This document shows, piece after piece, positions 18,038 to 59,733 of a stretch of DNA of 64,000 nt (within the stretch, counting starts at the first letter, position 1; each line of letters starts with the position of its first letter). Origin of the DNA: Elsinoe ampelina (Eukaryota). The position numbers were made by a program, and so were the translations under genes. The stretch is taken from positions 1,109,001-1,173,000 of the forward strand of contig ML992502.1 of the NCBI GenBank assembly GCA_010093995.1, given 5' to 3'. Below the pieces are notes generated by a model. That model did not search any database. It was given only the letters and a program-made list of their open reading frames with translations, and was not told where the DNA came from.

Positions 18038-18238
18038 TCACACGTGACAGGTCAGTTGTGGTAATTCCGTATCCTCACATTTCTCACCTCCTTCCGAACT
18101 TCACTTAAACATGCTCACGACCAGACTGCTCTCATGCCGACTGCCCGCTCTGCCATCAAAGCCGTTTACATCAATCATGTACACAGCTGACAGCGTTACA
18201 GAAAACCTGAGCTCACCTAGATCCTCCTCCTACGTCAG

Positions 18239-21200
18239 ATGAATCATACCTCTCTCGCGACATCCCTTTCGACATCCCAATTACCGCCCGGCTGGTTCGT
18301 GTGTGTATCGCCGGCCGCCGTCGAAGCCAATTCCACATCTCTGATTCCCCCGAACACATTTCAGGTCATTCCACCTCCACCTCGTCAAGGACCTACCTCG
18401 CCTACAACAAATTCGCAATCACCCTCAGATCTGCCACAAGCACAAACTCAAAGCAAGAGTCTCGTAGTCATGGATCGCACAAAGTCGAGGTCTATTACCA
18501 GCACCTGGAGAGCTGACCCTGGAGGTACTGCAATTCCGCCTCCGCCCATCATGTCTCCTCCTCCAATTGCTGGTCTCCAAGTTGGACCGTTTGCGCCGTA
18601 CACAGCCTTCACTACTAGGGGCTCCGACTTTGTAGTCCAGCATATCTGCGGTCGTTGCCGCAACCCTCGTTCAGTCAGCTACCATCGCGCTCATCCGGTC
18701 CCACTCGGCTTCCCGCCTCCGCCACCAAGCCTCTGTGGTAATTGTCGGCATGAGCTGGAAGCAGTTGACAAGCACCATAGCTCGTCACATGCTCACGAGA
18801 CGTATCAGTCCAACTCGCAGCCCTCAAGCAGATCCCGCCATCAACGCAGCAGGTAAGCTGCCTTACTGATTCTGTTTTTGAATATGGCCGCTGACGATAG
18901 TCGTAGGTCAGAGGTCCCAAGGTCTTCCAATCGTATCTCGATTCATCTACATCAAAATGTCGGCAATAGCGACGCTCAAAAGCCGTCGGTCTCTCGCGTT
19001 GTGGAAGAGAATGTTGAGCTCGCCGCCCCTCCCTCAGTCCATAAAGCAGCAACAACATCCCGTCAGCCAACGAATCATACCTCTACAGGACGCAATTCGA
19101 ATGCTCTCCAAGAAGAAGATCTTGGCTATGGATATGTGCAGAGCAAAAGGGCTCTATCTCCTCGAGAGGTACTGGCAGAAGCTCAGACTTTGGACCAAAT
19201 ACTCGAGAGCAAGACACAGGAGTGGGTAGCATCACAATCAACCGAGTCAAAAGCTCCTTCGCAGCAGCCTTCCCGCAGTGTGTCCCAAGCTGCTAAACCT
19301 GCCCCTCCCGCCTCGTCCTCCAAAGCAAGCAGCGGCAAGACAAAGTCCGAGAGTACCATCCGGAGGATCGCAAGAGAAGAGGTTGTCAAATACAGACAAG
19401 TTGAGCGTCAGGTCGAGAGTCACCCACAACCATATGCTCACGGCTGGGCCACTCAAGTCTCCGAGCAGGATCAAAAAAACAAGGCCGCACCAACCGCATC
19501 TCATGTTACCTCTCGGAGCGAACACACCTGGAAGGGTACGGCGAAGACGTCTGCTACTCACGAGTCTTCGGCTTGGCACCCTGTGCCCGCAAAAGCAGAT
19601 ACTGAGCCCGAAATTCAGCAACCTTGCGGGAGGGAAGCACCGCAGAAGTCGATGGTATCTCAGGGAGTATCGACAGACTGGACATGGCAGTCGAAAAGTG
19701 AACAGGCTACCAAGAAAGGTCCTCGATCTACCAAGAGCAGCGCTGCAAGGGTCGAGGACTTTGAGAGGGGTCCTCCACTATACCAACCCACCGAACAACA
19801 CCTCCGTGGTTCCTACGACAAGCCATCAGGAGAAAGTGGATACGAGAATGGCTCGTTCAGTCGTGTCTCTATCCGTCGTCGCCGATCATTCGAGACAGAC
19901 TATACCATTCAACCTGGCTCATCCATTAGCCAGCGACCACCTGTATACCTAGTCCAGCGGACCGATACGAGATCCGGAGCTTCCTACGATCTCGACCAGG
20001 TCGCCAAGGATGCCCGTCATATGGTGCCAGCATCTTACGACGATCGAAGATACGATTCAAGATCAGGAGATGGGAGAAGAGGTTCAGTCCAACCACAACA
20101 TGAGACGTCAGAACCGCCAAGGCAGCCAGCTGCCCCACCTCAGCCGATACCGCCATCACCAGCGCCGCCTGTTAGGACTCAGAAGGTCACTCTTCAATCG
20201 GAACGCCTTCAGTCTGAAGATATCGGCATCCGGGAAAGAGTCTCAAAATATGGTGCCGAGCAGTCGGAAGATCGTCCACCCTCCCCTCCATCACCGCCGC
20301 CAATGGCTTCTCGGTTCGCAGATGACCAGTGGACGTATGAGGAGGAGATCAGCCCAAATAGAATCAGGGTCATCCGCGAACGGCTGATTCGATCCCGTCC
20401 GACGTCTCCAGAGCGACCAGTTCCACCACAGGCCCCTACTGGACCCAAGGTCAAGCGCTATGAGATAGTCGAATCTGTGCGGTCAGTACCAGAAGATCGA
20501 GGCCGCACCAAAGTGAGAGATGGCGACGAGAAACCAAAGCAGCGGCTCCGCAGTATTCTCAGATCGCCAGGAGCGTCACAGTATGCGTCACATTACGATA
20601 GTCGCAATCCTCGAAGCGAGAGCATTAGTCGGCGTGTCTCGTTCTCGGAAGCCATCGATGTGACTATGCTCTCGCCTCCACCTTCATCCTCTAATCTGGG
20701 AGAATCATCAGGCAGAGAGCGTCGCCGAGGGAGCAGATCTGGCAAGACGCGCTACCCACGGTACGATGGTCCGGAGAGCAGCACATACGACGACGCTGAC
20801 GACGATGAGCGTTACTATTACGAGAGGACGCGAAGACCTGATCCACCAATGTCCTCACGCTCTACTGGAGTCGCCGAGACAGAGTCCGAAGCTGCTGATC
20901 GCCGACGTGCACTTGCTCGTGCTTTGAGCGAGTCACCGTCTAGAGAGCGTGGTATCCATGTCATCGATAGGTCGAGGAGATCAGATCGACGTTCCCAGTA
21001 CTCTCCAGAGCGAGGTCAGCGTTCAGAAGTAAGACCACCGCCAGAGCCTCTGTCGTACCCGCTACCCGGCTCTGGACCCGGATCCGATCACTCCGATGGC
21101 CTCGGACCGTATGCACCGTTCATCTCGCCAGGTTCATCGATGGCATCCAATGATGGGCGAGCTCCCATACTCATGAGTGGAGGTCTCTCCGGGTTCTCAA

Positions 21201-21697
21201 CAGTACGTCCACCCTCTCAGCGTACGGCGGACGTTGAAGGAACATCTCATGCTGCTTCGATTCCTCCTCAGCGTGTGCGGCCCCCTCAACAGCAGGATAT
21301 ACCGCCACCTCCGGTGGTCAATCGGCGAGTCAGTACTGCAACGGCTTCCCAGCCGATCAGATACGGCTCGGATACCTACGCTGAGCGTTCGAGATACAAT
21401 GAAGGGCAAGAGACTCGTGCCGCCTCGGACTTTCATCCCAGCCAACCTTCACGAGGTCAGAGATCTCCTTCACCACCACCCAGAACTCGAGTCCGTTCAA
21501 GCACTGTCTTGCGCGACGAACGATCTGGTACCACTCGTACCCGTGACTATGCTAACGATCGTGCACCAACCAGCAGCTACGATGACTGGAGGCCAAGCAG
21601 GACTGGTGGTCGTGGAAGCAGGACAGAGGATAGCAGGTATGAGAGCAGACACGATAGCCAGTATGATAGCAGGCGTGACGATAGACGTGGTCGCTGA
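18239..21697 (+). CDS. Large Pro/Ser/Arg-rich disordered protein (approx. 1,134 aa) with N-terminal CxxC...CxxC motif
   Basis: Exon 18239-18852, intron 18853-18906 (GTAAGC...CTGAC...TAG), exon 18907-21697 join in frame; motif HICGRCRNPRSVSYHRAHPVPLGFPPPPPSLCGNC. Confidence 0.75.
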
Positions 21698-22982
21698 GGG
21701 GTGGCAGGAGGGAGGTTGCGGCAAATGGGAGGTGTACGATACTTGTGGCTCGGCTCGGCTCAACGACTCACAGTCAGAGCAGGGGGAGCCAAGGGTGGAG
21801 GGAGAGCAAAGAGCGGGTCAATTCCAGCATGTGGCCAGAGCATACCATTCTAGACAGGTCCTAACGAATCACATGCTGACTATGTGACGTCGCTTCTCTA
21901 CCTGTGCGTATAATAGGTCGGCTTCAGCATTCTTAGCCATTGCTATGCTATTATTCTCGTCGTAACCTTTCGCCGACGGGACAGAGCTGTCTTCTAGGGC
22001 TGCTCGTCTACTCAGCTGAGTCGTACATCCCGGCACATACCACCAACAAGATGGCTCGCAGCCTGAGACGCTCAGACCTCTTTGGCCATTACTGGGAGTG
22101 TGAAGCGGCAAGAAAGGTGGACATAGGGGAGTCTAGTCACTTGGACTTCGGACACTGTCCCGTTGCCAACATTCAGTCGCGAGTGTGAGAGGCATGATGC
22201 AGCCTAGCATCGTTCTGTGACGGGGAGAGGCAGTCTATAGAGCATGAAGTAGGTAGATGAGTCCCTGCTCAAGGCCATGCTCGAACAGAAGAAGACCACA
22301 TCTGGCTAGTCAAGATACCCACCACTGATACTGCATGTCCAAGCCATCTGGTGCCGTCGTATGGACACTTTCAAGGGAGGGGGGTCCATCGTGTACAGTC
22401 CCGTGCGTGATGTCGGTCCCATCCGAAGCCTCCAACGCCTTCCGCGGCCTGATCTACGGTACCCTGCGTTGCCCTGCATGGGCCCATGTGTCAGGAATAG
22501 AAGCAGGGTCGCAATTCGACATGGCCCGGGGATGGGGTTCGGTGGTTTATGCTCGGCAGCCTTGTGCACTGTGCACGATAGACCTTACTCCGGGTCTACT
22601 GGGTCGCTTGTCTGGTGGGACATGCATGGGATTAGTTTTTGTGGTGGGGGAGGTGTGTTGGGTTGGAAATAGAAGCTGGAGAGGGAGATGTTGGTGTCAA
22701 GAAGTAGGAATTGATGGCGTTCGGTGTGGTGTCTTGAGCTGTTACCCATCCAGGAGCACCCTTTGATAGGAAGGCAGAAGGCAAAAGCATGGCGCGTTCT
22801 TCGTGATGCAGCAGAACATGGAGTTATGACATGTCATACGACATTGTACTTGACCACGATCTTGCTTCCGACAATGCTTGACTGCAGATGGAAACTTCCT
22901 CTGATAATCCTCAATCCCCCTGATGGAACCCTTTCCCGTTTTGTTTGTGCACAGGAGGGACTTTAGGTGCCGTTTGCAACAA

Positions 22983-25900
22983 CTAGGAAGGATGTCTTCT
23001 GATGAATGGCCGCGGAAGCCTAGGACGTAGCTGTGACCAATACCTGCTCCGCACGGCAATAGGTGTCCTGCCGTCCAACCTTTTCGCCATCTCGTGGAAG
23101 CTTGTGCCCCTCGACACACCATCCGCAACGATTTGGTCCTCCTCGTCGGTCCAGCGGCGTTTGGTCAAGTGCTTTTGTACCTCATTGTCGACGATGGTCA
23201 GGGGTTGAGGATCGACCGTGCTGTCCTGCTTCTTATTCTTGAGCCTTTGAAATCGACATTTCAGAGCGCCAGGCTGACAAGTTTGTTGCCTGGTCGGCGA
23301 CAAAGTCGATAAAATCTGTTGCCAGCTTTTACCCTCTGCTTTGCCTGCCATTATGAGGCTGTCTTCTTCAGCGGTATATCTAGCATTCACAACAGAGACA
23401 GGCATTTCCGGATTCTTCAGATTCAGGGCAACGGCATGAAAACTTACACCCTTTGCAGTACGAGTGGTGCCTAGTCTCTTGGCGACGTTTACGTACGATA
23501 GTCCTTCCTCCAGCAGTCGCCTTAGTTCTTGGTCTTCTGCAGCTGTCCACTCGACGTAGCGATTCGTCGGTAATACTGACTTTCTCTGTCTTAATTGCAT
23601 GTAGCGTCGCCTGATCGCATTTGAAGCGAAAGTAGATGGATTGAACCGAGAGCACATGTGAGTGGCGATATCAGTATACGACCAGTTGTCTGCTCTGAGG
23701 GAGAGGATTCGATGATCTTGAGCTTGCGTCCATTTGTGCCTCGTCGCCACAGGACCACGACTAGGTAGTCGCCGGTCGTTCTTTGATCGGTCTGAAACGG
23801 CATTTTGATGGCCACTATTTTCATCGCATAGCTCCATGTGCTGAGGAGTGCATACTCGCGCCTCTGGGCAAGGAGGATCCACGGCTTGTTGAGATGTGCT
23901 GTCGTCTGAGTCATCATCGTCGCCGTGGTCGGCTTCGGAGACTACCAAAGATACTTCCGATCTGCTCGCTCGACAATGCACGGCGCAGAAGTCGGCCGTT
24001 ATCGATACCAGATGATCATTATCATGGAGGTCCTGAAGACGGTCCTCACCGCTGACATTTCGACGCGCAGGGCAAGAACTTTCCGCCAGGGCGGCCCAAG
24101 TGTCGACCAGTAAGCGATACCTTGCTTGGTAGTACCAGATCTTTTGCACGTAGCTCCACTCAATATTGGCTGACACGAAGCCCATTTCGTGAAGAGTATG
24201 GCCAGATTGGTCTCCCACCTCCGAGAATATCGACGACGGAAATGGGAGTACAACACAACGCCCGTGACCACATACTGATCCTGTGCAGTATCCTGAAGCC
24301 AGACGCTGGTAGAGAAAGTGCCATGTCACTATGGATGTGAATTCTCTAGTTTGATTTCTGAGGGCGAGCCCCCCAAGCACATCTCGATTCCAGGGTCCTC
24401 CCCGAAAACCATCATGCTCTATCAATTGTGAGTCCGCGGGGACACCGACAGTGCTTGGAGCAACGTTGCTTACCACTGATTCCATCCCACACTGACTTGA
24501 CGAGCAGGTAACGGCGGCTGCTTTCCCAGAAATCCCGCAAACGCTTCGCGTCCCACGTCTTTCCGGAGCAGGCAGTACCTGTTGTGATGCGAGACAGTAT
24601 TGCCTGGATATCGATGTCTCCTTGGATCGCATAGCGTAGATCTGAATCGGATCTGAGCATCCCCATCTGCTCTATGTAGAGTTTAATGTGATACTGCGCA
24701 TTGAACGTGCGTTCAAGATCCGCAAACATACGGAACGGCATCTGCCATTCTCGTGCATATATGTTGAACCATGCACTTTTCAGGGCCGAGAACGAAAATT
24801 GAAGTCCAGAAGCCCACAAAGATTGTTGCACTCGAAGCAAACCATGTCTGAGCGGTCCAGTCATTGCACCTCCGTTGTGCATCTGCGAGAAAGCCGAGTG
24901 AACGAGTGGTATGTTGCTAAGCCGAACGTAATCGAAGGGAGCTCGTACCTTGACGCCAGTTTTGAGCGGACAGACTAAGTTCATTCCTCTGTATGGAGAG
25001 ACGGGCATATCGTGAGGCCGACTCGCACGTGCGAGATGAAGGCTTGGTAGCACATCAGCGCGCTTTGGAAAGCTGGAAATCGTAGCGCTGCCACGTATCG
25101 CTGTCAAGGCTGTCGAAAATCACGCAATCTATCGCCTCCATCAGCACGCTTAAACATTTCAGTTGAAGAGATTTCTGGAAACGACGGGAGGCGTCCACAA
25201 CTGTGACAGGGAAGCTGAAGCTGACACGAAATCGTGGAGCTTCATTAATGCGAGCAGTCTCCTCATGAAACCACAGTAGGTGCGTTGGTTTGTTCAGACG
25301 CTTTGCCACGACAGCATTATGGCCAGATACCAATGCTTCAGCGAGGAGATCCTTGTGTTGCACTAGTCGCTGTCTCAGCCCATGCAAAGAGACTGCACTC
25401 CCACAATATAGGTATCGTTCTGGGGTCGGTCCTTTAGACAGCACCTCGGCTATGTAGCCGCCTACATGCTCTGGCAGGTCGTCAACGCGGTCGAGATCCA
25501 CGGTGGGGACCGAATCAAGCAGTCCAGCAGACCAGTGCTGCTTACCGACCGCAATTTTGAGCTCCTTCGGCCTTACCACAGGATGCGAGATCAATCTTTG
25601 CAAGATTGACCATCGGTAGGGGGTGGCATTCTGACTGAGAAAGTCAAAGAGTACAGATGACATGTACTGACAGCGTCTGCCGTGTATACTGGTTGACTCA
25701 AGACATAGCTTGTCGCGCCAACAATTGATTATCTGAGCCTGCCAATCGTTGAATCTGGCTATATGTGATGCTTCCTCCGTACTTGAAACTGTACAATGGC
25801 TTAGACAGCTTGATACCAGAAGGCAGTGTTCATCGAAGAACAAAGACCAAGCTGGGAGGGTTCTTACCTTCCGTGGGCTCCGGACTAGCAAGGCTGTCGA

Positions 25901-26744
25901 GTAGGTCTTCTTCGAGCCACAACTCACGCAACGCATAATCAAGCTTAACATCAACGGGATTGCCGAGTCGCATCTGGCAGATGTCGCAATCGTTGTTGGC
26001 CATGCCATGCGCAGCCGTCGCCATATACCTGCACATGCAGTGGAGGTCCAGGACAGAATCCGGTATGGTAGTGTCGCCATGGCGCAAAGCGCGCAACATC
26101 TTGTCGATCCCGAAAAGTGGGTCTGGGTAGTCGTGTTTAATGCTGGCGTACTGCAGCACCTTGTCGCGAACGGAAGTGTTTGGCTGACTACGTGCAGGAT
26201 CGTGTGTCTGCCTCCTACCCTGCCTCGCACTGCCGCTTGAGAAAACTGCTGTGTTCGAACGTGGATCGCTGGCTGCAAACGATTGACCGTCATGTGCATC
26301 ACCTCTGCTCGTCTTACTCGCCTGGAAACCGGCTCCATTGTTGCAGAAATCCATCGTAATTTCATCATCATAGATGTCGTCTTCAGCAGAGTCCATGTCG
26401 TCTTCAGCGGAGTCCATGTCGTCTTCAGCGGAGTCCATGTCGTCTTCAGCGGAGTCCATGTCGTCTTCAGCGGAGTCCATGTCGTCTGCGCTGAGCTCTA
26501 AGTCGATGCCTTCATCCTCGTATTCACTCCCGCTTGCACTGATGACAGACGATGAACGGTGCGACATTGGTTGCAGCGGCTGCTTTGTATCGACTTCATT
26601 GATCGAGTCGGGCACACTGTCAAGGTAAATAGCCAATCTTGCTTCTCGTAACAGCTGCGTGCGTCCAATTTGATTTCCGGTGTCATCTACTTCCACCTTG
26701 ATCGGTCTGTTTTCGCCCGAGACGCTCAAGGATTTAGTTGGCAT
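22983..26744 (-). CDS. Putative GIY-YIG-like nuclease fused to four Myb/SANT-like repeats (approx. 1,208 aa if one frameshift near 25060-25105 is corrected; possible pseudogene)
   Basis: Four track ORFs are joined by two canonical introns (25867-25789; 24473-24419) plus one +1 frameshift. Motifs GGY-x15-YCGSA...GLRQRLVQH, LMEA, GMN; repeats starting KWTQAQD, EWTAAED, RYTAEED, RWTDEED. Confidence 0.7.
26374..26487. repeat. 21-bp coding tandem repeat, about 5.4 copies
   Basis: Unit ATGTCGTCTTCAGCGGAGTCC x5 (one mismatch) plus a partial copy; encodes (DMDSAED)n on the minus strand. Confidence 0.95.
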
Positions 26745-27193
26745 CTTTGGATGTAATGACAGATCGTGACTGTCGGTTGCGAAAAGTCGAACGCGCATAG
26801 GTTCGTGTAAGTGTTTGGCAGGCCGACCTTGGAGTGCGGCATTTTCAAGCTCCGCAGGTTATACCAAGAACCAGCTCAATATTGCTTAATTTTGAGTGGT
26901 ATGTCCAACATGAGCGTTTTCACATGGTGAATGTACTGGCATACACTGGGAGCGCTCGCACTCCCACTCTGCTCGAATCCCACTCAGTCATCAGCGCTGC
27001 TGCTGCACTAACTTCTACATATGTAATAATCGTTGCCATGAGTGTTTGGAAGAGATCAGCTGGTCCAAGCTCGGAAAGTTTGGTTCCATCCCTCTCATGT
27101 CATCTTCCATGAGTGAGAGACGTTCAATAATCAACTTTTTTTCAAATCCACCTTCGCCGCTCTCTGCGCTGCCTATCATCATCCAGTGACAAA

Positions 27194-28024
27194 ATGTCCG
27201 AGCGGAAGGTACTCAGCAAATACATACCACCCGACTTTGACTACCGCAAAATAGCGCGACGATCAGGGCGGACAGAGCCTGGTCCCAAAGTCCAAGTCGT
27301 TCGCCTCATGGCACCGTTTTCGATGCAATGCACAACATGTGGGGAATATATTTACAAAGGGCGCAAGTTCAATGCTCGCAAGGAGACTCCCGAAGGCGAA
27401 AAGTATCTGCAGATTCAGATCTTTCGCTTCTACATTCGCTGCACACGATGCTCCGCAGAGATCACTTTCAAGACGGACCCGAAGAACATGGATTATACTT
27501 GCGAACATGGCGCACGGCGGAACTTCGAGCCATGGCGAGGCAAGCAGCTAGACGAGGGGGAGACGGACGATCAACGCCTCGACCGGCTTGAACGAGATTA
27601 CGCCGATCAAGACGACCGCGGCGCAATGGAGAAACTTGAAGATAAGACGCACGATGCTCGTCGTGAGATGGACATTGCAGACGCACTGGATGAGATTCGG
27701 ACCCGAAACGCCCGCCGCGAGCGAGTCAGCAACTCTCAAGTCGACGCAACCGACATAACCGCTCATGAAGCGATTCCCGACCAAGCCACAGCACGACAAG
27801 CGGAAGATGAAGCCGATGCAGCCGCTTGGACACGCGCGCGAGCAGAAGCTAGAGGTATGGTAGGTGTGACTGCAGAAATGCCAACAACGTCACTACCACG
27901 ATCGTTGGCCGCAAGAACGGGTCCGGTCAAAAAGCAAGGGCTGATAAAGGGTATCAAGAAGAGGGAACAAAACGACGGAGCATCCAGAATGTTGGTTGGA
28001 TACGAATCGGACAGCGATGGATGA
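27194..28024 (+). CDS. YJU2: Spliceosomal factor Yju2/Cwc16 (CCDC94), intronless
   Basis: MSERKVLSKYIPPDFD, VRLMAPFSMQCTTCGEYIYKGRKFNARKE, FRFYIRCTRCSAEITFKTDPKNMDY, DALDEIRTRNAR, C-terminal LVGYESDSD. Confidence 0.93.
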   Translation: MSERKVLSKYIPPDFDYRKIARRSGRTEPGPKVQVVRLMAPFSMQCTTCGEYIYKGRKFNARKETPEGEKYLQIQIFRFYIRCTRCSAEITFKTDPKNMDYTCEHGARRNFEPWRGKQLDEGETDDQRLDRLERDYADQDDRGAMEKLEDKTHDARREMDIADALDEIRTRNARRERVSNSQVDATDITAHEAIPDQATARQAEDEADAAAWTRARAEARGMVGVTAEMPTTSLPRSLAARTGPVKKQGLIKGIKKREQNDGASRMLVGYESDSDG

Positions 28025-53826: not shown

Positions 53827-56810
53827 CTACTCCTCATCCCCGAAAAACGTCAAAATCGCCCTGACGCCCCCGGGCCCCATACCACGCGGCGGATACGCCA
53901 CGAAGATCGGATCCTCGTGGGCCCCCAACTTCTCCCTAAACACGGTCTTGCGCGTCAACTTCAGCTCCGCCGCAATGGCCGAATACGCCCTGCTCAACAC
54001 CCTGACCCTCGGGCCGTTGAGGTTATGCCCGGGGACGAGCTTGCTCGTCGCGCCCCCGCCGAACGTGACGCTCGTGGCCCCCGCGTCCCCGGCGCGTTTG
54101 AGCGCGTGCATCACGGCGCTCTCGATGGTTCCCGAGGGCGCAGAGGGGAAGTCGAGGGCGTACTTCACTTGCCACCCCCGCGCGGGGGAGAGTTGCGCCA
54201 TGACGACGAGGGCGTGGAGGGTGCCGTCGGGTCCGGAGGCGAGGTGGTACGAGCGGTGCGCCGTGTCTTGCCACGGTCGGATCTCGGTGAGGTGGACTTG
54301 TTTGCCTTTGCGGTTTTTGATCCAGTCCGTGACGCGGGCGTCGACTTTGGCGCGGACGTCGGGGGGTGGCGCCTTGCCGAGGGGTAGTCGGTGATGTGGA
54401 TGCCTTGTTTGGACGCGTGGCGGATTTTGCGTTGGATGTCGTTGTCGTGTTGCGCTGGGTTGTGGGTGGGGTCGAGGCGTTGTTCGGCGGCTACGGAGAA
54501 GGTGCGCCAGTTGTGTTTGGTTGCGAGGACTTCTTCGGTGAGGTGGCCGCAGAGGACCCAGAAGGGTTTGAGATTGCGGTCTTTGCGGATGTAGCGCAGG
54601 TAGCTGGCGATTGTTTTGGGGAATTGCTCGGGGTGGCAAAGTGGATCGCCGACGGTGATGGCGTAGTCGCCTTGGGGGACGAAGCCAATGGCTGCACCAG
54701 TGTCTTCCGCTCGCCAGATCTCGGTTCGTGGCTCGAGCCAGGAAGTATTGGAGGCGTCGCCGTAGTTGGCGATGAGCTTCTCGATTGGTGGTAGGTCCAA
54801 GTGGGCCGCGACTCGATCTCGACCTTCCCAGGGAGGGTGCATGGTGGAGGCTTCCGGATGACGCAGTTGAGGGACTGCTGGTTTTGCTGGGAATGATTTT
54901 GGATCTCGAGGGAACATGGAGGCGTTTCTGATGTCTCCAAGGTTGAGCATGAGCATGAGAAGACGCTCTAGTCCAATCCCTCCACCTCCGTGGGGAGGCA
55001 TACCCCATTCAAAGGCACTGAGGTAGTCTTCCATGCTCGAAGTGTCGATATGGAGTCGCTCCAAATTCTTCTTCAGCATGCTGGCATCGTGGATACGTTG
55101 GCCGCCGGACAGGATCTCCTGTCCCCGGCAGAAGATGTCGAATGAATTTGTGAAGCGGTTATCGTCAGGATCCGGCATGGCGTAGAAAGGTCGAGCCCCG
55201 ACAGGGAACTTGTCGAGGATATAGTAATCGGTGTGGTAGCGCTCCTTCACCAAACGTCCGAGCTCGATCTCGTCTCTTGTCCCCAGATCCTCATCTTCTG
55301 GAAGCTCTTCACCCTTTTCGTTTCGCCAGCCAGACTCGTTCAGCATCTTGATGCCGTCCGAGAACTTGATAATTGGTGTCTCATCCGCCCATACCAGATC
55401 CTCGTGAGGATGTTGCTTCTTCACAATCTCAATTTCGTCCCGACACTTGACGTATATGCCTTCAAAGATCGTCTTGAAGACATTGTCCAGGACCCTGATA
55501 ATTTCGTGATAATGTTCGTCGATAGCCATCTCCAGATCCAGACCGGTATACTCGGTCAAGTGTCGATGTGTGTTGGAATTCTCGGCGCGGAAGACGGCGC
55601 CAATCTCAAAGACCCGGCCAAAGTCGGCAGATATGGCCATCTGCTTGGGCAGTTGGGGTGACTGAGCTAGCGCTGCAGGTCGACCAAAGTATTGTAACTT
55701 GAACACACTTGCTCCACCTTCTGATGCCCCACCTTGTAGCTTGGGCGTGTGGATTTCAATGAAATTTTGCTTGAGCAGGGCTCCACGGAAGAGTGTCGAC
55801 ACTGCGGATTGTACTCGAAAGATGCTGTGTGCTGTGGTCGTTCGAAGGTCGAGTACTCGATTGGCCTGGCGAGCCCTTCCTGAAAGCCTGGTACGGTCCG
55901 ACTGCTCTGCGTCTGTCTTCGATACCTCTGCTTCGGGTATGGTGAATGGTAGTGGTTCGGTTGGCTTGCCCTCGACGAAGATCTCGTGTATGGATATCTC
56001 GACATTCTTGATGGTGGCACCGAGGACTTCGCCTTGTTCAGCTTTTGGTTCCTGGACCACACCCTTGACCTTGACTACCGTCTCGCTGTGAAGGTGTTGT
56101 ACCCAGTAGATCATATGACGAGAAACAGAACCATGCTCTTGCAGTACACCCTGGACCGTGTTGGCTTGTTGCCGAAGGTGGACGAAAGTCAGCTTCTGAC
56201 TGATCTTCCTGATATTCTGTACCCTCGCACGAAAGACTACCACACGTCCAGCATCGCTTGCGGACAGCTCTTCAATGGCGACACGCTTCTCTCCAGTGGT
56301 CTTACCAGCGTAGTTGTTGATTGGTAGGTAGCCGTACTTGGACTTCTGTTCCTCAGTCTCACTCTCAGCGGCGCGTTTCTCTGCCTCCTCTTTCCGAAGG
56401 CGATCGGCTTCTTCCCGTGTCCCAGCCGATTTGCGACGGACTTCTCGGGATCGATCTCGGGCGTGCTTGCGTTGTTGGTTCTTGCTCAAGGGCTCGCCGT
56501 CGCGGTTCAGCGGTCGATCATCCGAGGAAGAGCTTGACCGCCGATGGAAGACATCTTTGATGGCACGGATGGGTGATGCGCTATGATGTGTGTGCTCATG
56601 TTTGATGTGATTGCGGTCGAAAGATGCACGGATTGGCGATGCTGTCTTCGATGTTGGAGTGTCAGTACCATTGAGATTGAAACTATCTCGGGACGCTTCA
56701 GTGCTAGTGGTCGATCCCGTCGGTATGCGTCGGTCCTTCTGGATTGTATCAATCGCCACCTTGTCTTTTGGGTGCGTCGAGCGCTTCAGGGCGGAGAGCG
56801 CCCGCTCCAT
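53827..56810 (-). CDS. erdS: Ergosteryl-3beta-O-aspartate synthase (AspRS-DUF2156 fusion); apparent 1-bp deletion at 54381-54384 (994 aa if corrected)
   Basis: AspRS motifs (RVLDLRT, EGGASVF, LAQSPQL, FRAENSNTHRHLTEY, GQEILSGGQRIH, PPHGGGGIGLERL) followed by DUF2156/GNAT-type LIANYGDASNTSW, VGDPLC and, in the shifted frame, RKGKQVHLTEIRPW, QVKYALDFP, VTFG, FREKLGA. Confidence 0.9.
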
Positions 56811-57462
56811 GTCGAGCTATTCAGTAGGGGATGAGCTCAATGGCGGTAAGGATAAGCTACGAATGCTGTGATGCAAAGTAAAGAGCAATGGTAGGTCAGG
56901 GTAGGAGCAGAGTGAAGAGGGAACTTTTGACGGTTCAAGTGCTACTTAGCTAGACGTCGTTCCTGGATCACAACGCACAGTGACGGCGGAGCTGCTTAGA
57001 TATGGTTCACCCGTACCTTGCGGGTGACTGCTCACATGCCTCGGAATTGCAAAGCACGACGACATGACGAAACAGATGTTGACAAAGTTCAGCGAGGTGC
57101 TTGGAAGAGACCGGAAACAAAGTCGAGTGAGGGTCAGGATTTTTGCGTCGTTCGCGTGCCGAAAGGCCCGCCTCGGAATTTGAGCGCTTGTGATTCGCCG
57201 CGAGCGGATTTCTTGTCATTGGCAAATTCGTCACCTTCCACCCTGGCAGTACCGCAGTCTTTAGGCGACAAACATTGGCTTCGAGTACAGCCCGATTATA
57301 CACGTACACCGATCAGCAATTCTATACAAGAAGGCCACGAACGAACTTCTGAGAGGTGAGGGCAGAGGTGAATTAAGAGGTAGCGGTGTTTACTAGCTCG
57401 ACGTCACAAGCTTTTTCATGCCAGAGCTTAGCTCAATGTTCCCGCCCGCCGCCCTTGGGCCC

Positions 57463-59072
57463 AAGGCTCACTTTCAGAAATCCTGGCGCACGGGCCCGCC
57501 AAGCTGTACCGGCTTTACCACTTTTTGTATATAGACAATACATCTTCATAGGCTGCGCTCAATTCTTATTGTATGAAGCTGTAATTAAGGTGGTAAATAG
57601 CTATACTATTGAATTAAAGGTGTAAGTGCTTAATAGTTAGTGCTTTTGCCGTTATGTTACTATAGCTAGTGTACTCTATCCGGTATCTTCTCTACTAGCT
57701 TATCTATCTAATCCTACGGTATATCCTCCTATTCTTCTTAAATAAAGCGTTTTAGCTCTTTATTAGTTGTTAGTATATGTCGCTTAATATACTACTTAAC
57801 TCTCTACTAGTAGTTCTTAATAATAGTTATATTAGGTAATTTAGTACAATTAGTATAATATTAGAAGCCTAGTAGTAAGTCTTTATATAGCTTAACTAGA
57901 TTGTAGGTTAATTAAGTGCCGTAAGCGCTATTATTGTCTTCTTCTAGTATAAAGGCTTCCTTCTTAAACTATACATTGTCCTAGTACTTCTTAATATAGG
58001 GAATAAAGATACTATAAAGATAGGTAAACTAATTAAGGTTACTGCCGATAGTAAGTACTAAGAGTTACTTCTTATAGTAGTCGTATTTATAACTCGCCTT
58101 ATCTTTATACTAGTACTTATAGCTAGGCTATAAGTTGTTTAATAGGCGTAACTTAGCTTCCTCTATCTTAAGAATAGTCCCTAAAGGCTAAGAGTTAACA
58201 TTAATAAGGTCGGCCTCTAGTATAGCCTTTTGCTTGTTAATTGTCTTTAGTAGTAGCAAATTAGAGTAGAATATAAGCTCTAACTTAAAGCTATAGCCGA
58301 CTATCCCCTAGATATATACTATTATCTTTGTAGTTTTCTTTTTAAACTAGATCTTATTTAGGTTATTCCTCTAGCCTCGGCGGCGATAGATTATAGTAGT
58401 AGCTCTTAAGTTATAGTAAAAATAAGACTTATTAGTAAATCTAATACTTTTCTAGAAGTCTAAGTCTTTATAGCGGTAGATTTCAGCCTACGCTTTATAA
58501 GCTGCTATATTCTTAGCCTTTAGCTAGCCCTTCTATTTAGCCTTAAACTTAAAGATACTATAGCCTTATATAGCTCTATATAGTATCTAAGAGTTAACAT
58601 CTAGATAGAATAAGTCTACTAGCTACTAGTAAGTCTTTTTAGCGTTACTAAAGCTACTATCAATAAAGCGCTAGATACAACAGAGTAGACAGTTATTAAT
58701 AATAGAGGTTCTTCTAGGCCGCTTAGATCTAGACCTCCGAGCTAATCTAGTAAGTATCTACTATATAGAACACTTAGGAACCTTTATTATATATAATATC
58801 TAGCTTATAGGGAATTTAGTGCATCTAGGTAGTAGTAGTGCTACTCTAAGGGCGTAACAGCTAGCGCAGATTAGAGTAGGCTACTTGTGCCCCTTAGTGT
58901 ACTTCTAATTAGCCTCTAGAGTTAGCGTGCGTAAATTAGAATAAGGTAATTCGGCTATGGCAAGTTCATTAGGAAAAAAATCAAAGCAATTAGAGCAAAA
59001 TTAGTAGTGTTGTAAAGGTGTGCAATTTGGTAGTGGAATCTTGGTATGCCACGACTAAAAAAATTGAGCCTT
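57463..59072 (-). mobile_element. RIP-inactivated Tc1-like (IS630-Tc1-mariner) DNA transposon, about 1.6 kb
   Basis: Abrupt AT-rich, TpA-rich island full of TAA/TAG. Reverting transitions on the minus strand gives FWKSIRFTDESHF, LEEDNDSAHG, SPDMTIIENCW, EELKRFIQEEWEDIPQDWIDKLVEKMPDRV. Imperfect terminal inverted repeats AAGGCTCA.../...TGAGCCTT (20 of 29 positions match). Confidence 0.88.
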
Positions 59073-59733
59073 GGCCCATCCGTCCGGCACCACGCGGATG
59101 CATACACTTCTTCATCCTTCCATGCACGGCATCATGACACATCTGCCGGCGAGGGTTTGTTGATCCTGAGGCACGGAAGCTCAGAGTGTCCGTGGTTGCT
59201 TCTTGTGATCAGCAGATTGCGATCACAGGGCTGGAATAAGATATAATCCGCCTCGTCCCGATCTTTCTCGACCATGGAGCGATATCAGCTGGAAATCTTC
59301 GAGCTCCGTGCTCCGGAGTATGTCATGTATAGTACATGCATAATTGCACACAAACTCCGAATACGTCCGACGACAGGCGATCAGCATTACAAAGGCTCGA
59401 CTAGAAAGGCCAGCTTACAGCGACTGACACGAAAAGGACTCCAAGCCCTGAAGACTTGAAGAATGATAATAGTTTCAAACGTTTGGTGTGTGAATTGCTC
59501 CGTCCTTGACGTGTGCGAGCATGTCGCGAAGCCTTCTGCTCCAACCAACGGTCAATAGGTGCATGATCAGGAATTTGACATGCATGTGGAAGGCACTGGA
59601 GTATCACGTAAGGTGTCTTTCGATCATGGTTTGTATCTGTCGTCTGTCATATTCAAGTCCTCAAGCAACCCTGTTTCCTTTTTGTTGTCCTCTATGCAAG
59701 CACGCACTGCTATCATGTATCCTCCGCAACTGC

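Follow-up and report, generated by a model that had tools for sequence, protein, structure and literature searches.

In this study, we analysed a 64,000-nt stretch of the Elsinoe ampelina genome (GenBank assembly GCA_010093995.1, contig ML992502.1, positions 1,109,001 to 1,173,000; the whole stretch is called the window here and is numbered from its first letter). At 22983..26744, its minus strand carries a spliced gene in which the parts of a GIY-YIG-type nuclease are followed by an array of Myb-like repeats, with a frame break inside the nuclease domain. An earlier note on this DNA, made from the letters alone, had read the locus as one intron-containing gene with a single frameshift, coding for a sequence-targeted nuclease guided by four Myb repeats and possibly selfish. 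The assembly searched is a eukaryotic genome of 28.3 Mb in 161 contigs. Contigs of four of the 11 listed sequencing runs were aligned to the window: X1, a DNA run that may be the source of the assembly, and X3, X4 and X7, which are RNA-like. The latter label was a guess of the tool, no holder being recorded as RNA, and is supported by the spliced joints. All four runs contain the gene, having been selected by matching the gene itself. The features of the gene are as follows.

25868..26744, minus strand: exon 1 coding part of 292 codons (from the frames and the contig alignment), with a low-complexity acidic N-terminus and a Cys cluster
26353..26508, minus strand: 21-nt tandem repeat of about six copies, encoding an acidic heptapeptide repeat
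25977..26039, minus strand: CxC-x14-CxxC in exon 1
25789..25867, minus strand: intron 1, 79 nt, GT..AG
24474..25788, minus strand: exon 2, with the nuclease domain, the frame break and the helical middle region
25487..25657, minus strand: family-specific helical extension ahead of the nuclease core, with conserved Phe, Asn, His-Pro, Gly, Trp and Asp
25118..25468, minus strand: GIY-YIG core (from the AlphaFold model, the I-TevI match and conservation), with core residues Tyr 25454-25456, Tyr 25406-25408, Arg 25367-25369, His 25355-25357 and Glu 25136-25138
25055..25119, minus strand: frame-break zone, in which both frames are open
24979..25020, minus strand: conserved RP..P..G-x-N motif bearing the GIY-YIG Asn, in the second frame
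24474..24966, minus strand: helical middle region, collinear with relatives
24419..24473, minus strand: intron 2, 55 nt, GT..AG
22983..24418, minus strand: exon 3 coding part to the stop TAG, with a Cys/His region, an acidic linker and four Myb-like repeats
23973..24287, minus strand: two Cys/His pairs in exon 3, also present in the relative P0004 (pairwise E 8e-4); a possible zinc site
23574..23747, minus strand: Myb-like repeat 1, weak; alone it gives only weak DUF7626 and helix-turn-helix hits
23406..23564, minus strand: Myb-like repeat 2 (PF00249 E 0.0013, under the cut-off)
23229..23390, minus strand: Myb-like repeat 3, weak, from the alignment (DUF7626 E 0.0019, under the cut-off)
23010..23168, minus strand: Myb repeat 4 (PF00249 E 4e-8, over the cut-off)

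The two introns are phase-compatible, as the earlier note had it, and appear as exact joints in the contigs. The joint of intron 1 was found in all three non-DNA runs (X3, X4 and X7) and that of intron 2 in one of the three (X3), no listed contig of X4 or X7 spanning intron 2; neither joint occurs in X1. An X3 contig runs from 26418 to past 22500 with both introns out and is otherwise gapless, exon 2 lying in a single gapless piece (record 7). Because this contig covers the nuclease and the Myb parts with only two introns removed, the two have exons in common and the reading as one gene stands, although the contig by itself is not proof of a single transcript. The X4 and X7 contigs end at about 26790 and 22910-22925, which hints weakly at where the transcript begins and ends. 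From the ATG to the final stop, the spliced sequence measures 3628 nt, that is, 1209 codons plus one base. The positions that had been given for the GGY, YCG, Glu, GMN and CxC-x14-CxxC motifs were all correct. The stored protein of this locus, P0001 (25055-26371, minus strand), has a wrong-frame start, reads through intron 1 and terminates at the premature stop, without the Myb part.

The nuclease domain was judged by the features of the GIY-YIG superfamily set out in the available text of PMC1564403, namely GIY and YIG strands, a central Arg and a C-terminal Glu. The domain has GIY/YIG strands (GGY at 25454-25462, YCG at 25400-25408), the Arg and the Glu, and a predicted three-strand, three-helix fold. 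Its AlphaFold model (predicted local distance difference test score 82) consists of a pair of strands, a pair of helices, a third strand and the helix that carries the Glu, with GGY and YCG on predicted strands 109-116 and 124-131. Among 48,161 chains, the catalytic domain of I-TevI was the top VIA match of this model (Z 7.5, root-mean-square deviation (rmsd) 2.4, 86 of 92 residues), and the six rows below it included UvrC, T4 EndoII, Eco29kI, PD-T4-3 and a plant glutaredoxin N-domain. Six of the top seven rows cover the same region and three are titled GIY-YIG or I-TevI; T4 EndoII, PD-T4-3 and the plant glutaredoxin (Grx) N-domain are GIY-YIG members as well. For the intact relative P0004, I-TevI was again on top (Z 7.3, rmsd 2.1, 90 of 92 residues), with a matched range that includes the Asn of P0004. 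The alignment of the window with 14 relatives (15 rows) keeps both Tyr, the Gly and the Arg in every row, the His in 14 and the Glu in 13. P0009 and P0010, the latter a fragment, leave the alignment ahead of the Glu and are the two rows that lack it. These catalytic columns are thus kept at about 25% identity. Because fold, motif order and conservation agree, we regard the GIY-YIG assignment, for which the fold is a predicted one, as firm, and the GIY-YIG fold proposed from the letters is supported. A sequence search of the PDB gave nothing under E 0.1; in the ESM Atlas, the top entries were unnamed Ascomycota clusters (0.95 and 0.91), with GIY-YIG clusters at 0.86-0.88, which serve as leads only. 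The Asn of motif E (GMN at 24979-24987), which some GIY-YIG families lack, does not lie in the same polypeptide as the other core residues in this allele.

The first frame stops at TGA 25057-25055 after 536 codons, just past a short GC dinucleotide run, and the second, in +1, is open for 693 codons from 25119. Because this frameshift sits within the nuclease domain and splits Glu from Asn, the fusion is not encoded by ordinary decoding; an intact Myb-guided nuclease, as the earlier note had it, is therefore not what this allele encodes. The frameshift itself, which the note had also recorded, is real: no indel was found at the break in X1 (record 2), X3 (record 7) or X4 (record 14), X7 being without coverage there. 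An assembly error was accordingly rejected as its cause, since a DNA run and RNA-like contigs of two studies are all without an indel. A third intron excising the stop was rejected as well, as no such joint occurs in X3 or X4, from whose contigs rare forms could have been dropped, and the donors are weak. X4 carries three differences from the genome elsewhere (two replacement and one silent, too few to judge selection) yet has the break, so the break is common to at least two strains or alleles.

The alignment scores are flat from 25115 to 25058, so the alignment cannot place the break and does not favour the stop as its site. The spacing from Glu to Asn is 44-51 residues in the six relatives, of 11, in which a spacing pattern measured it, and 52 codons plus one base in the window. 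Glu and Asn share one frame in 12 of the 14 relatives (six by the spacing pattern, five more located, and P0020), and none ends right past Glu, as a relative with the break at this point would. The rest of the gene, some 1,200 codons, is open, with no second lesion. At 1% divergence, neutral decay would leave it so with a chance of 0.21 without indels and 0.02 with indels in a simple model of our own. That these codons are otherwise open thus points to a recent loss or to continued use of both frames. Most likely, this allele was recently disabled.

Downstream of the break, the first part of the middle region, represented by residues 346-411 of P0004, matches GT-1 (Z 6.5) and Zeste (Z 5.7), at low model confidence. 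Searched as Myb-like, the middle region was negative in Pfam and gave an hhalign probability below 1%. It may possibly consist of further Myb/trihelix-type units, which we regard as a lead only. At the C-terminus, the whole frame matches PF00249 at E 6e-13, and one of the four repeats, repeat 4, passes the Pfam cut-off when scanned singly. By these profile and alignment matches, the C-terminus is an array of four Myb-like repeats, in agreement with the number first read from the letters.

A full phmmer scan of 1.84 billion representatives returned 10 non-self relatives, and a profile search added four, giving 14 relatives at 21-35% identity. Those with a species name belong to six species of Fusarium, and each sits in a 90% cluster that has only one or two members. 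No relatives were found in a protein search limited to 1793-5000 residues, and no loci of relatives were obtained from metagenome, viral or prokaryote contigs. P0002, P0003 and P0004 match the first frame, and their alignments run on into the second, P0004 reaching the Cys/His region of exon 3. Because P0003 and P0004 are collinear with both frames, both frames, as judged by alignment, derive from one ancestral gene. The exon 1 part had no convincing match among the relatives (best E 0.06), and none of the stored relatives has CxC-x14-CxxC within its first 350 residues.

The distribution is patchy, as had been predicted, and the same architecture was found in one other fungus, Fusarium subglutinans. 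Its protein P0021 (KAF5573978.1, 1231 residues, on a 5.9-kb contig) has the same order of parts as the window gene, the last of them being three Myb-like units (Pfam E 3e-5, below the cut-off). A profile made from the window's four repeats only gave P0021 26.4 bits, against a best score of 4.6 among 500 shuffles. P0021 is annotated as an aminodeoxychorismate synthase; in Pfam it has no such domain, and weak Myb hits alone. Four of the seven relatives checked (P0006, P0009, P0012 and P0018) carry tandem six-cysteine units at their ends instead. In P0009, P0012 and P0018, the C-terminus holds two to four units of about 70 residues, with a six-cysteine cluster after a CxxC...H...C pattern. Pfam did not call these units; to our eye they resemble Zn2Cys6 clusters. 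In a FastTree of the nuclease domain with all 15 rows, the window, P0002-4 and P0021 split from the rest with a support of 0.95, and the Myb-bearing pair (the window and P0021) groups with P0002-4, apart from the six-cysteine group. These comparisons suggest a small, patchy ascomycete family of proteins of about 1,000-1,200 residues with an acidic N-terminus, a GIY-YIG domain, a helical middle and a tandem DNA-binding tail. The tails appear to be exchangeable, Myb-like in one branch and six-cysteine clusters in the other.

We propose that the locus is one nuclear gene of a selfish family of modular nucleases and that this allele has decayed, a reading to which we give a probability of about 0.45. 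The intact proteins would act like I-TevI: their repeats would recognise a long stretch of DNA and hold in place a nuclease of low specificity, which would cleave close by. The family would be maintained as a selfish element, the nuclease cutting the family's own locus on the empty allele (or a rival chromosome) and repair then copying the gene, and would decay once fixed; these two steps are the least secure of the scheme. This allele would represent the stage of decay. Its first product is cut off by the frame break, short of the Asn and of every DNA-binding unit. The allele would therefore yield no targeted nuclease, though the gene is still transcribed and spliced. What points to selfishness is that the relatives are few, distant and isolated, that tails have been exchanged and that the nearest structural match is a homing enzyme. 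The gene is also without the bias of repeat-induced point mutation (RIP), with a TpA/ApT ratio of 0.58 against 1.59 at 57001-59500. The absence of RIP speaks against a transposon in several copies and fits a host gene as well as a homing or drive gene confined to one locus; with RIP-like DNA only 31 kb off, it fits a gene that stayed single-copy. That DNA is an AT-rich island at 57500-59000 (GC about 38-40%) with a strong RIP-like bias, probably a mutated repeat or transposon relic.

Other results weigh against this proposal. On the side of the fold, Z scores of 7.3-7.5 are moderate and, according to the tool's own note, reachable by unrelated models. In the structural check that had been suggested, AlphaFold with Foldseek, the search of the model against the PDB returned no match at E<=0.001. 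Its top PDB rows, Cif proteins (E 0.01, template-modelling score 0.18, rmsd 17), were dismissed as noise. Foldseek against viral models listed many GIY-YIG names, none of them significant at the same threshold, and Pfam called no GIY-YIG domain in the window pieces or in the 15 relatives scanned. On the side of the family, the Myb tail was seen in only one of the 14 relatives, P0021, which sits on a long branch; the three closest relatives, P0002-4, are partial, with their tails not covered. The relatives are predicted proteins, a source biased to open frames, and the searches may miss relatives, so that the patchiness is partly a matter of sensitivity. On the side of mobility, searches of the genome that used parts of the gene itself or a close relative as query found no second copy. 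No terminal or flanking repeats and no duplicated piece of either neighbour gene were found in the window, and no joint within 22500-28000 spans the gene as a surrounding host intron would, a joint ending outside that range being one that would not show. The other strain or allele seen also carries the gene. Its composition is host-like (GC 52%, GC at third codon positions 0.52-0.60), so there is no sign of recent arrival. With a single copy and neither terminal repeats, a host intron nor a host-gene fragment, mobility has no direct support, and the terminal repeats, target duplication and several copies of a DNA transposon are absent.

These results leave room for a host function. The gene would then be an accessory one, a domesticated nuclease or DNA-binding regulator (in defence against mobile DNA, repair or chromatin) that is often lost, this allele having been lost by mutation. 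Two ordinary spliced introns, the host-like composition, a single copy between ordinary genes beside an intact Yju2 gene and the absence of mobility marks all favour it. We nevertheless think it unlikely, if by no means negligible, since a stable host gene does not look like this set of relatives, each an isolated singleton at 21-35% identity, with tails that have been exchanged, and two of the 14 (P0009 and P0010) also leave the alignment before Glu. The gene could also be the displaced rider of an intron, a stray copy of a family that normally sits in spliceosomal introns of host genes. GIY-YIG genes are indeed described in mirusvirus introns in the available text of PMC12768974. The gene here, however, has its own introns, measures 3.8 kb and lies between two complete-looking genes with no spanning joint within 22500-28000, and we consider this origin improbable.

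Other explanations keep the allele working despite the break. Programmed or leaky ribosomal frameshifting, in which the P-site tRNA re-pairs on an identical codon two bases back and yields a little full-length nuclease with limited toxicity, would account for a break that is present in RNA of two strains or alleles with both frames otherwise open. The codon before the stop is indeed identical at -2 (GCG CGC before TGA), which is the case for just 44 of the 4132 stop-like triplets in the window, and antizyme provides UGA-stop shifts in fungi at varied codons (PMC1874602, in the part available). However, CGC-UGA is not among the antizyme sites in that part of the source, no stable structure was found downstream of the stop (z +0.76) and no relative has the break, though all are distant; a conserved shift site with stimulators across species, which marks the antizyme type, was not seen. 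Moreover, a replication slip would leave the same dinucleotide run, a typical slip site, the -2 codon test was chosen once the sequence had been seen, and the alignment gives the stop no preference as the break site. We therefore assign frameshifting only a small chance. A similarly small one goes to a split but working gene, that is, a 536-residue nuclease without the Asn motif plus a separate Myb protein made from an internal AUG (25008 or 24984) or a rare splice form. The first product does keep Tyr, Tyr, Arg, His and Glu in a confidently predicted fold, in-frame AUGs follow the stop, and the Slx1 family lacks the Asn motif (PMC1564403, in the part available). On the other hand, the motif is conserved among the relatives of this gene, the contigs, which drop rare forms, hold no stop-skipping joint, the local donor candidates are poor and no separate transcript was shown. 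The boldest version, in which free-standing nuclear homing or drive nucleases retarget by swapping Myb or six-cysteine arrays behind a phage-type GIY-YIG head and this allele is active at a low dose through slippage, we consider very improbable. A decayed allele of a selfish modular nuclease family remains the reading that we prefer.

The surroundings of the gene are as follows. Its 5′ neighbour, head to head, is a complete-looking Yju2 gene at 27194-28024 (Pfam E 1.5e-67). Its 3′ neighbour, tail to tail, is a long Ser/Arg-rich frame ending at 21697; this frame (18221-21697, plus strand, 946 codons, Ser/Arg/Pro-rich) has a CxxC-bearing frame upstream and no Pfam match. The 1.3-kb left flank between this frame and the gene, 21698-22982, holds minus-strand branch-plus-acceptor-like sites near 22635 and 22494 and four short frames with no Pfam match, and is covered by the X3 contig to 22500 without a joint. 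Farther away, a minus-strand frame at 54165-56816, which we take to be aspartyl-tRNA-synthetase-like, has a long extra C-terminal region and a frame change near 54400.

A GIY-YIG gene with a Myb array is apparently new to the literature. The family was not described in the literature on GIY-YIG nucleases with Myb domains or zinc fingers, on fungal homing and drive or on spliceosomal introns, as covered by titles and abstract openings, with few subscription papers and no supplements. If the intact relatives cut long, repeat-specified sites, they would be naturally occurring equivalents of the engineered fusions of a nuclease with repeats, with Myb or zinc-cluster arrays in the place of the latter. 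In that case the family would also provide, after the yeast WHO elements, the second known case of free-standing nuclear homing genes in fungi. It is invisible to Pfam and mis-annotated, both in the Fusarium subglutinans member and in the stored protein of this locus. For experiments this allele is ill suited, and P0021 and P0018 would be the better choice.

Comparison with known systems places the gene as follows. It is not Slx1: the genome's only Pfam GIY-YIG hit lies elsewhere, at L004 (G000:C12:755836-756042), which we take to be an ordinary Slx1 gene. Slx1 belongs to the same superfamily and is without the Asn motif in the available text of PMC1564403. The mirusvirus shintrons are GIY-YIG genes tied to spliceosomal splicing in the nucleus (PMC12768974, in the part available), whereas no host intron was seen around the gene here, judging by joints within 22500-28000. 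UMAG_11064 of Ustilago maydis is likewise a disabled GIY-YIG gene in a fungal nuclear genome, but is described, in the part of PMC7593156 available, as a recent untranscribed mitochondrial insert; the gene here is spliced, host-like in composition and a member of a nuclear family. The R2 non-long-terminal-repeat retrotransposon, in which a Myb domain helps the endonuclease to find its target (available text of PMC10499050), is a precedent for Myb-guided cutting. It combines one Myb with a restriction-like nuclease and a reverse transcriptase, and neither of the latter was found here.

The WHO elements of Torulaspora and Lachancea, and HO, are free-standing nuclear endonuclease genes with a DNA-binding appendage and frequent pseudogenes, according to the available parts of PMC7282813 and bioRxiv 10.64898/2026.08.13.744650. 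The gene here is also free-standing in a fungal nucleus and has a DNA-binding appendage. WHO elements, as those texts describe them, consist of LAGLIDADG, a zinc finger and a replacement 3′ half of FBA1, whereas the gene here combines GIY-YIG with Myb and has neither a host-gene fragment nor a cluster, which places it outside the WHO elements. The I-TevI-type homing endonucleases have an N-terminal GIY-YIG domain followed by modular DNA-binding units (PMC1564403, in the part available). In contrast to I-TevI, the gene here is nuclear and intron-containing, codes for about 1,200 residues with a helical extension and does not lie in a group I intron. Glu and Asn are also set apart by a long insert (44-51 residues in the six relatives measured), and Myb or six-cysteine repeats replace NUMOD and helix-turn-helix units. 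With its catalytic head and modular binding tail, I-TevI is nevertheless both the best structural match and the system most similar in its working.

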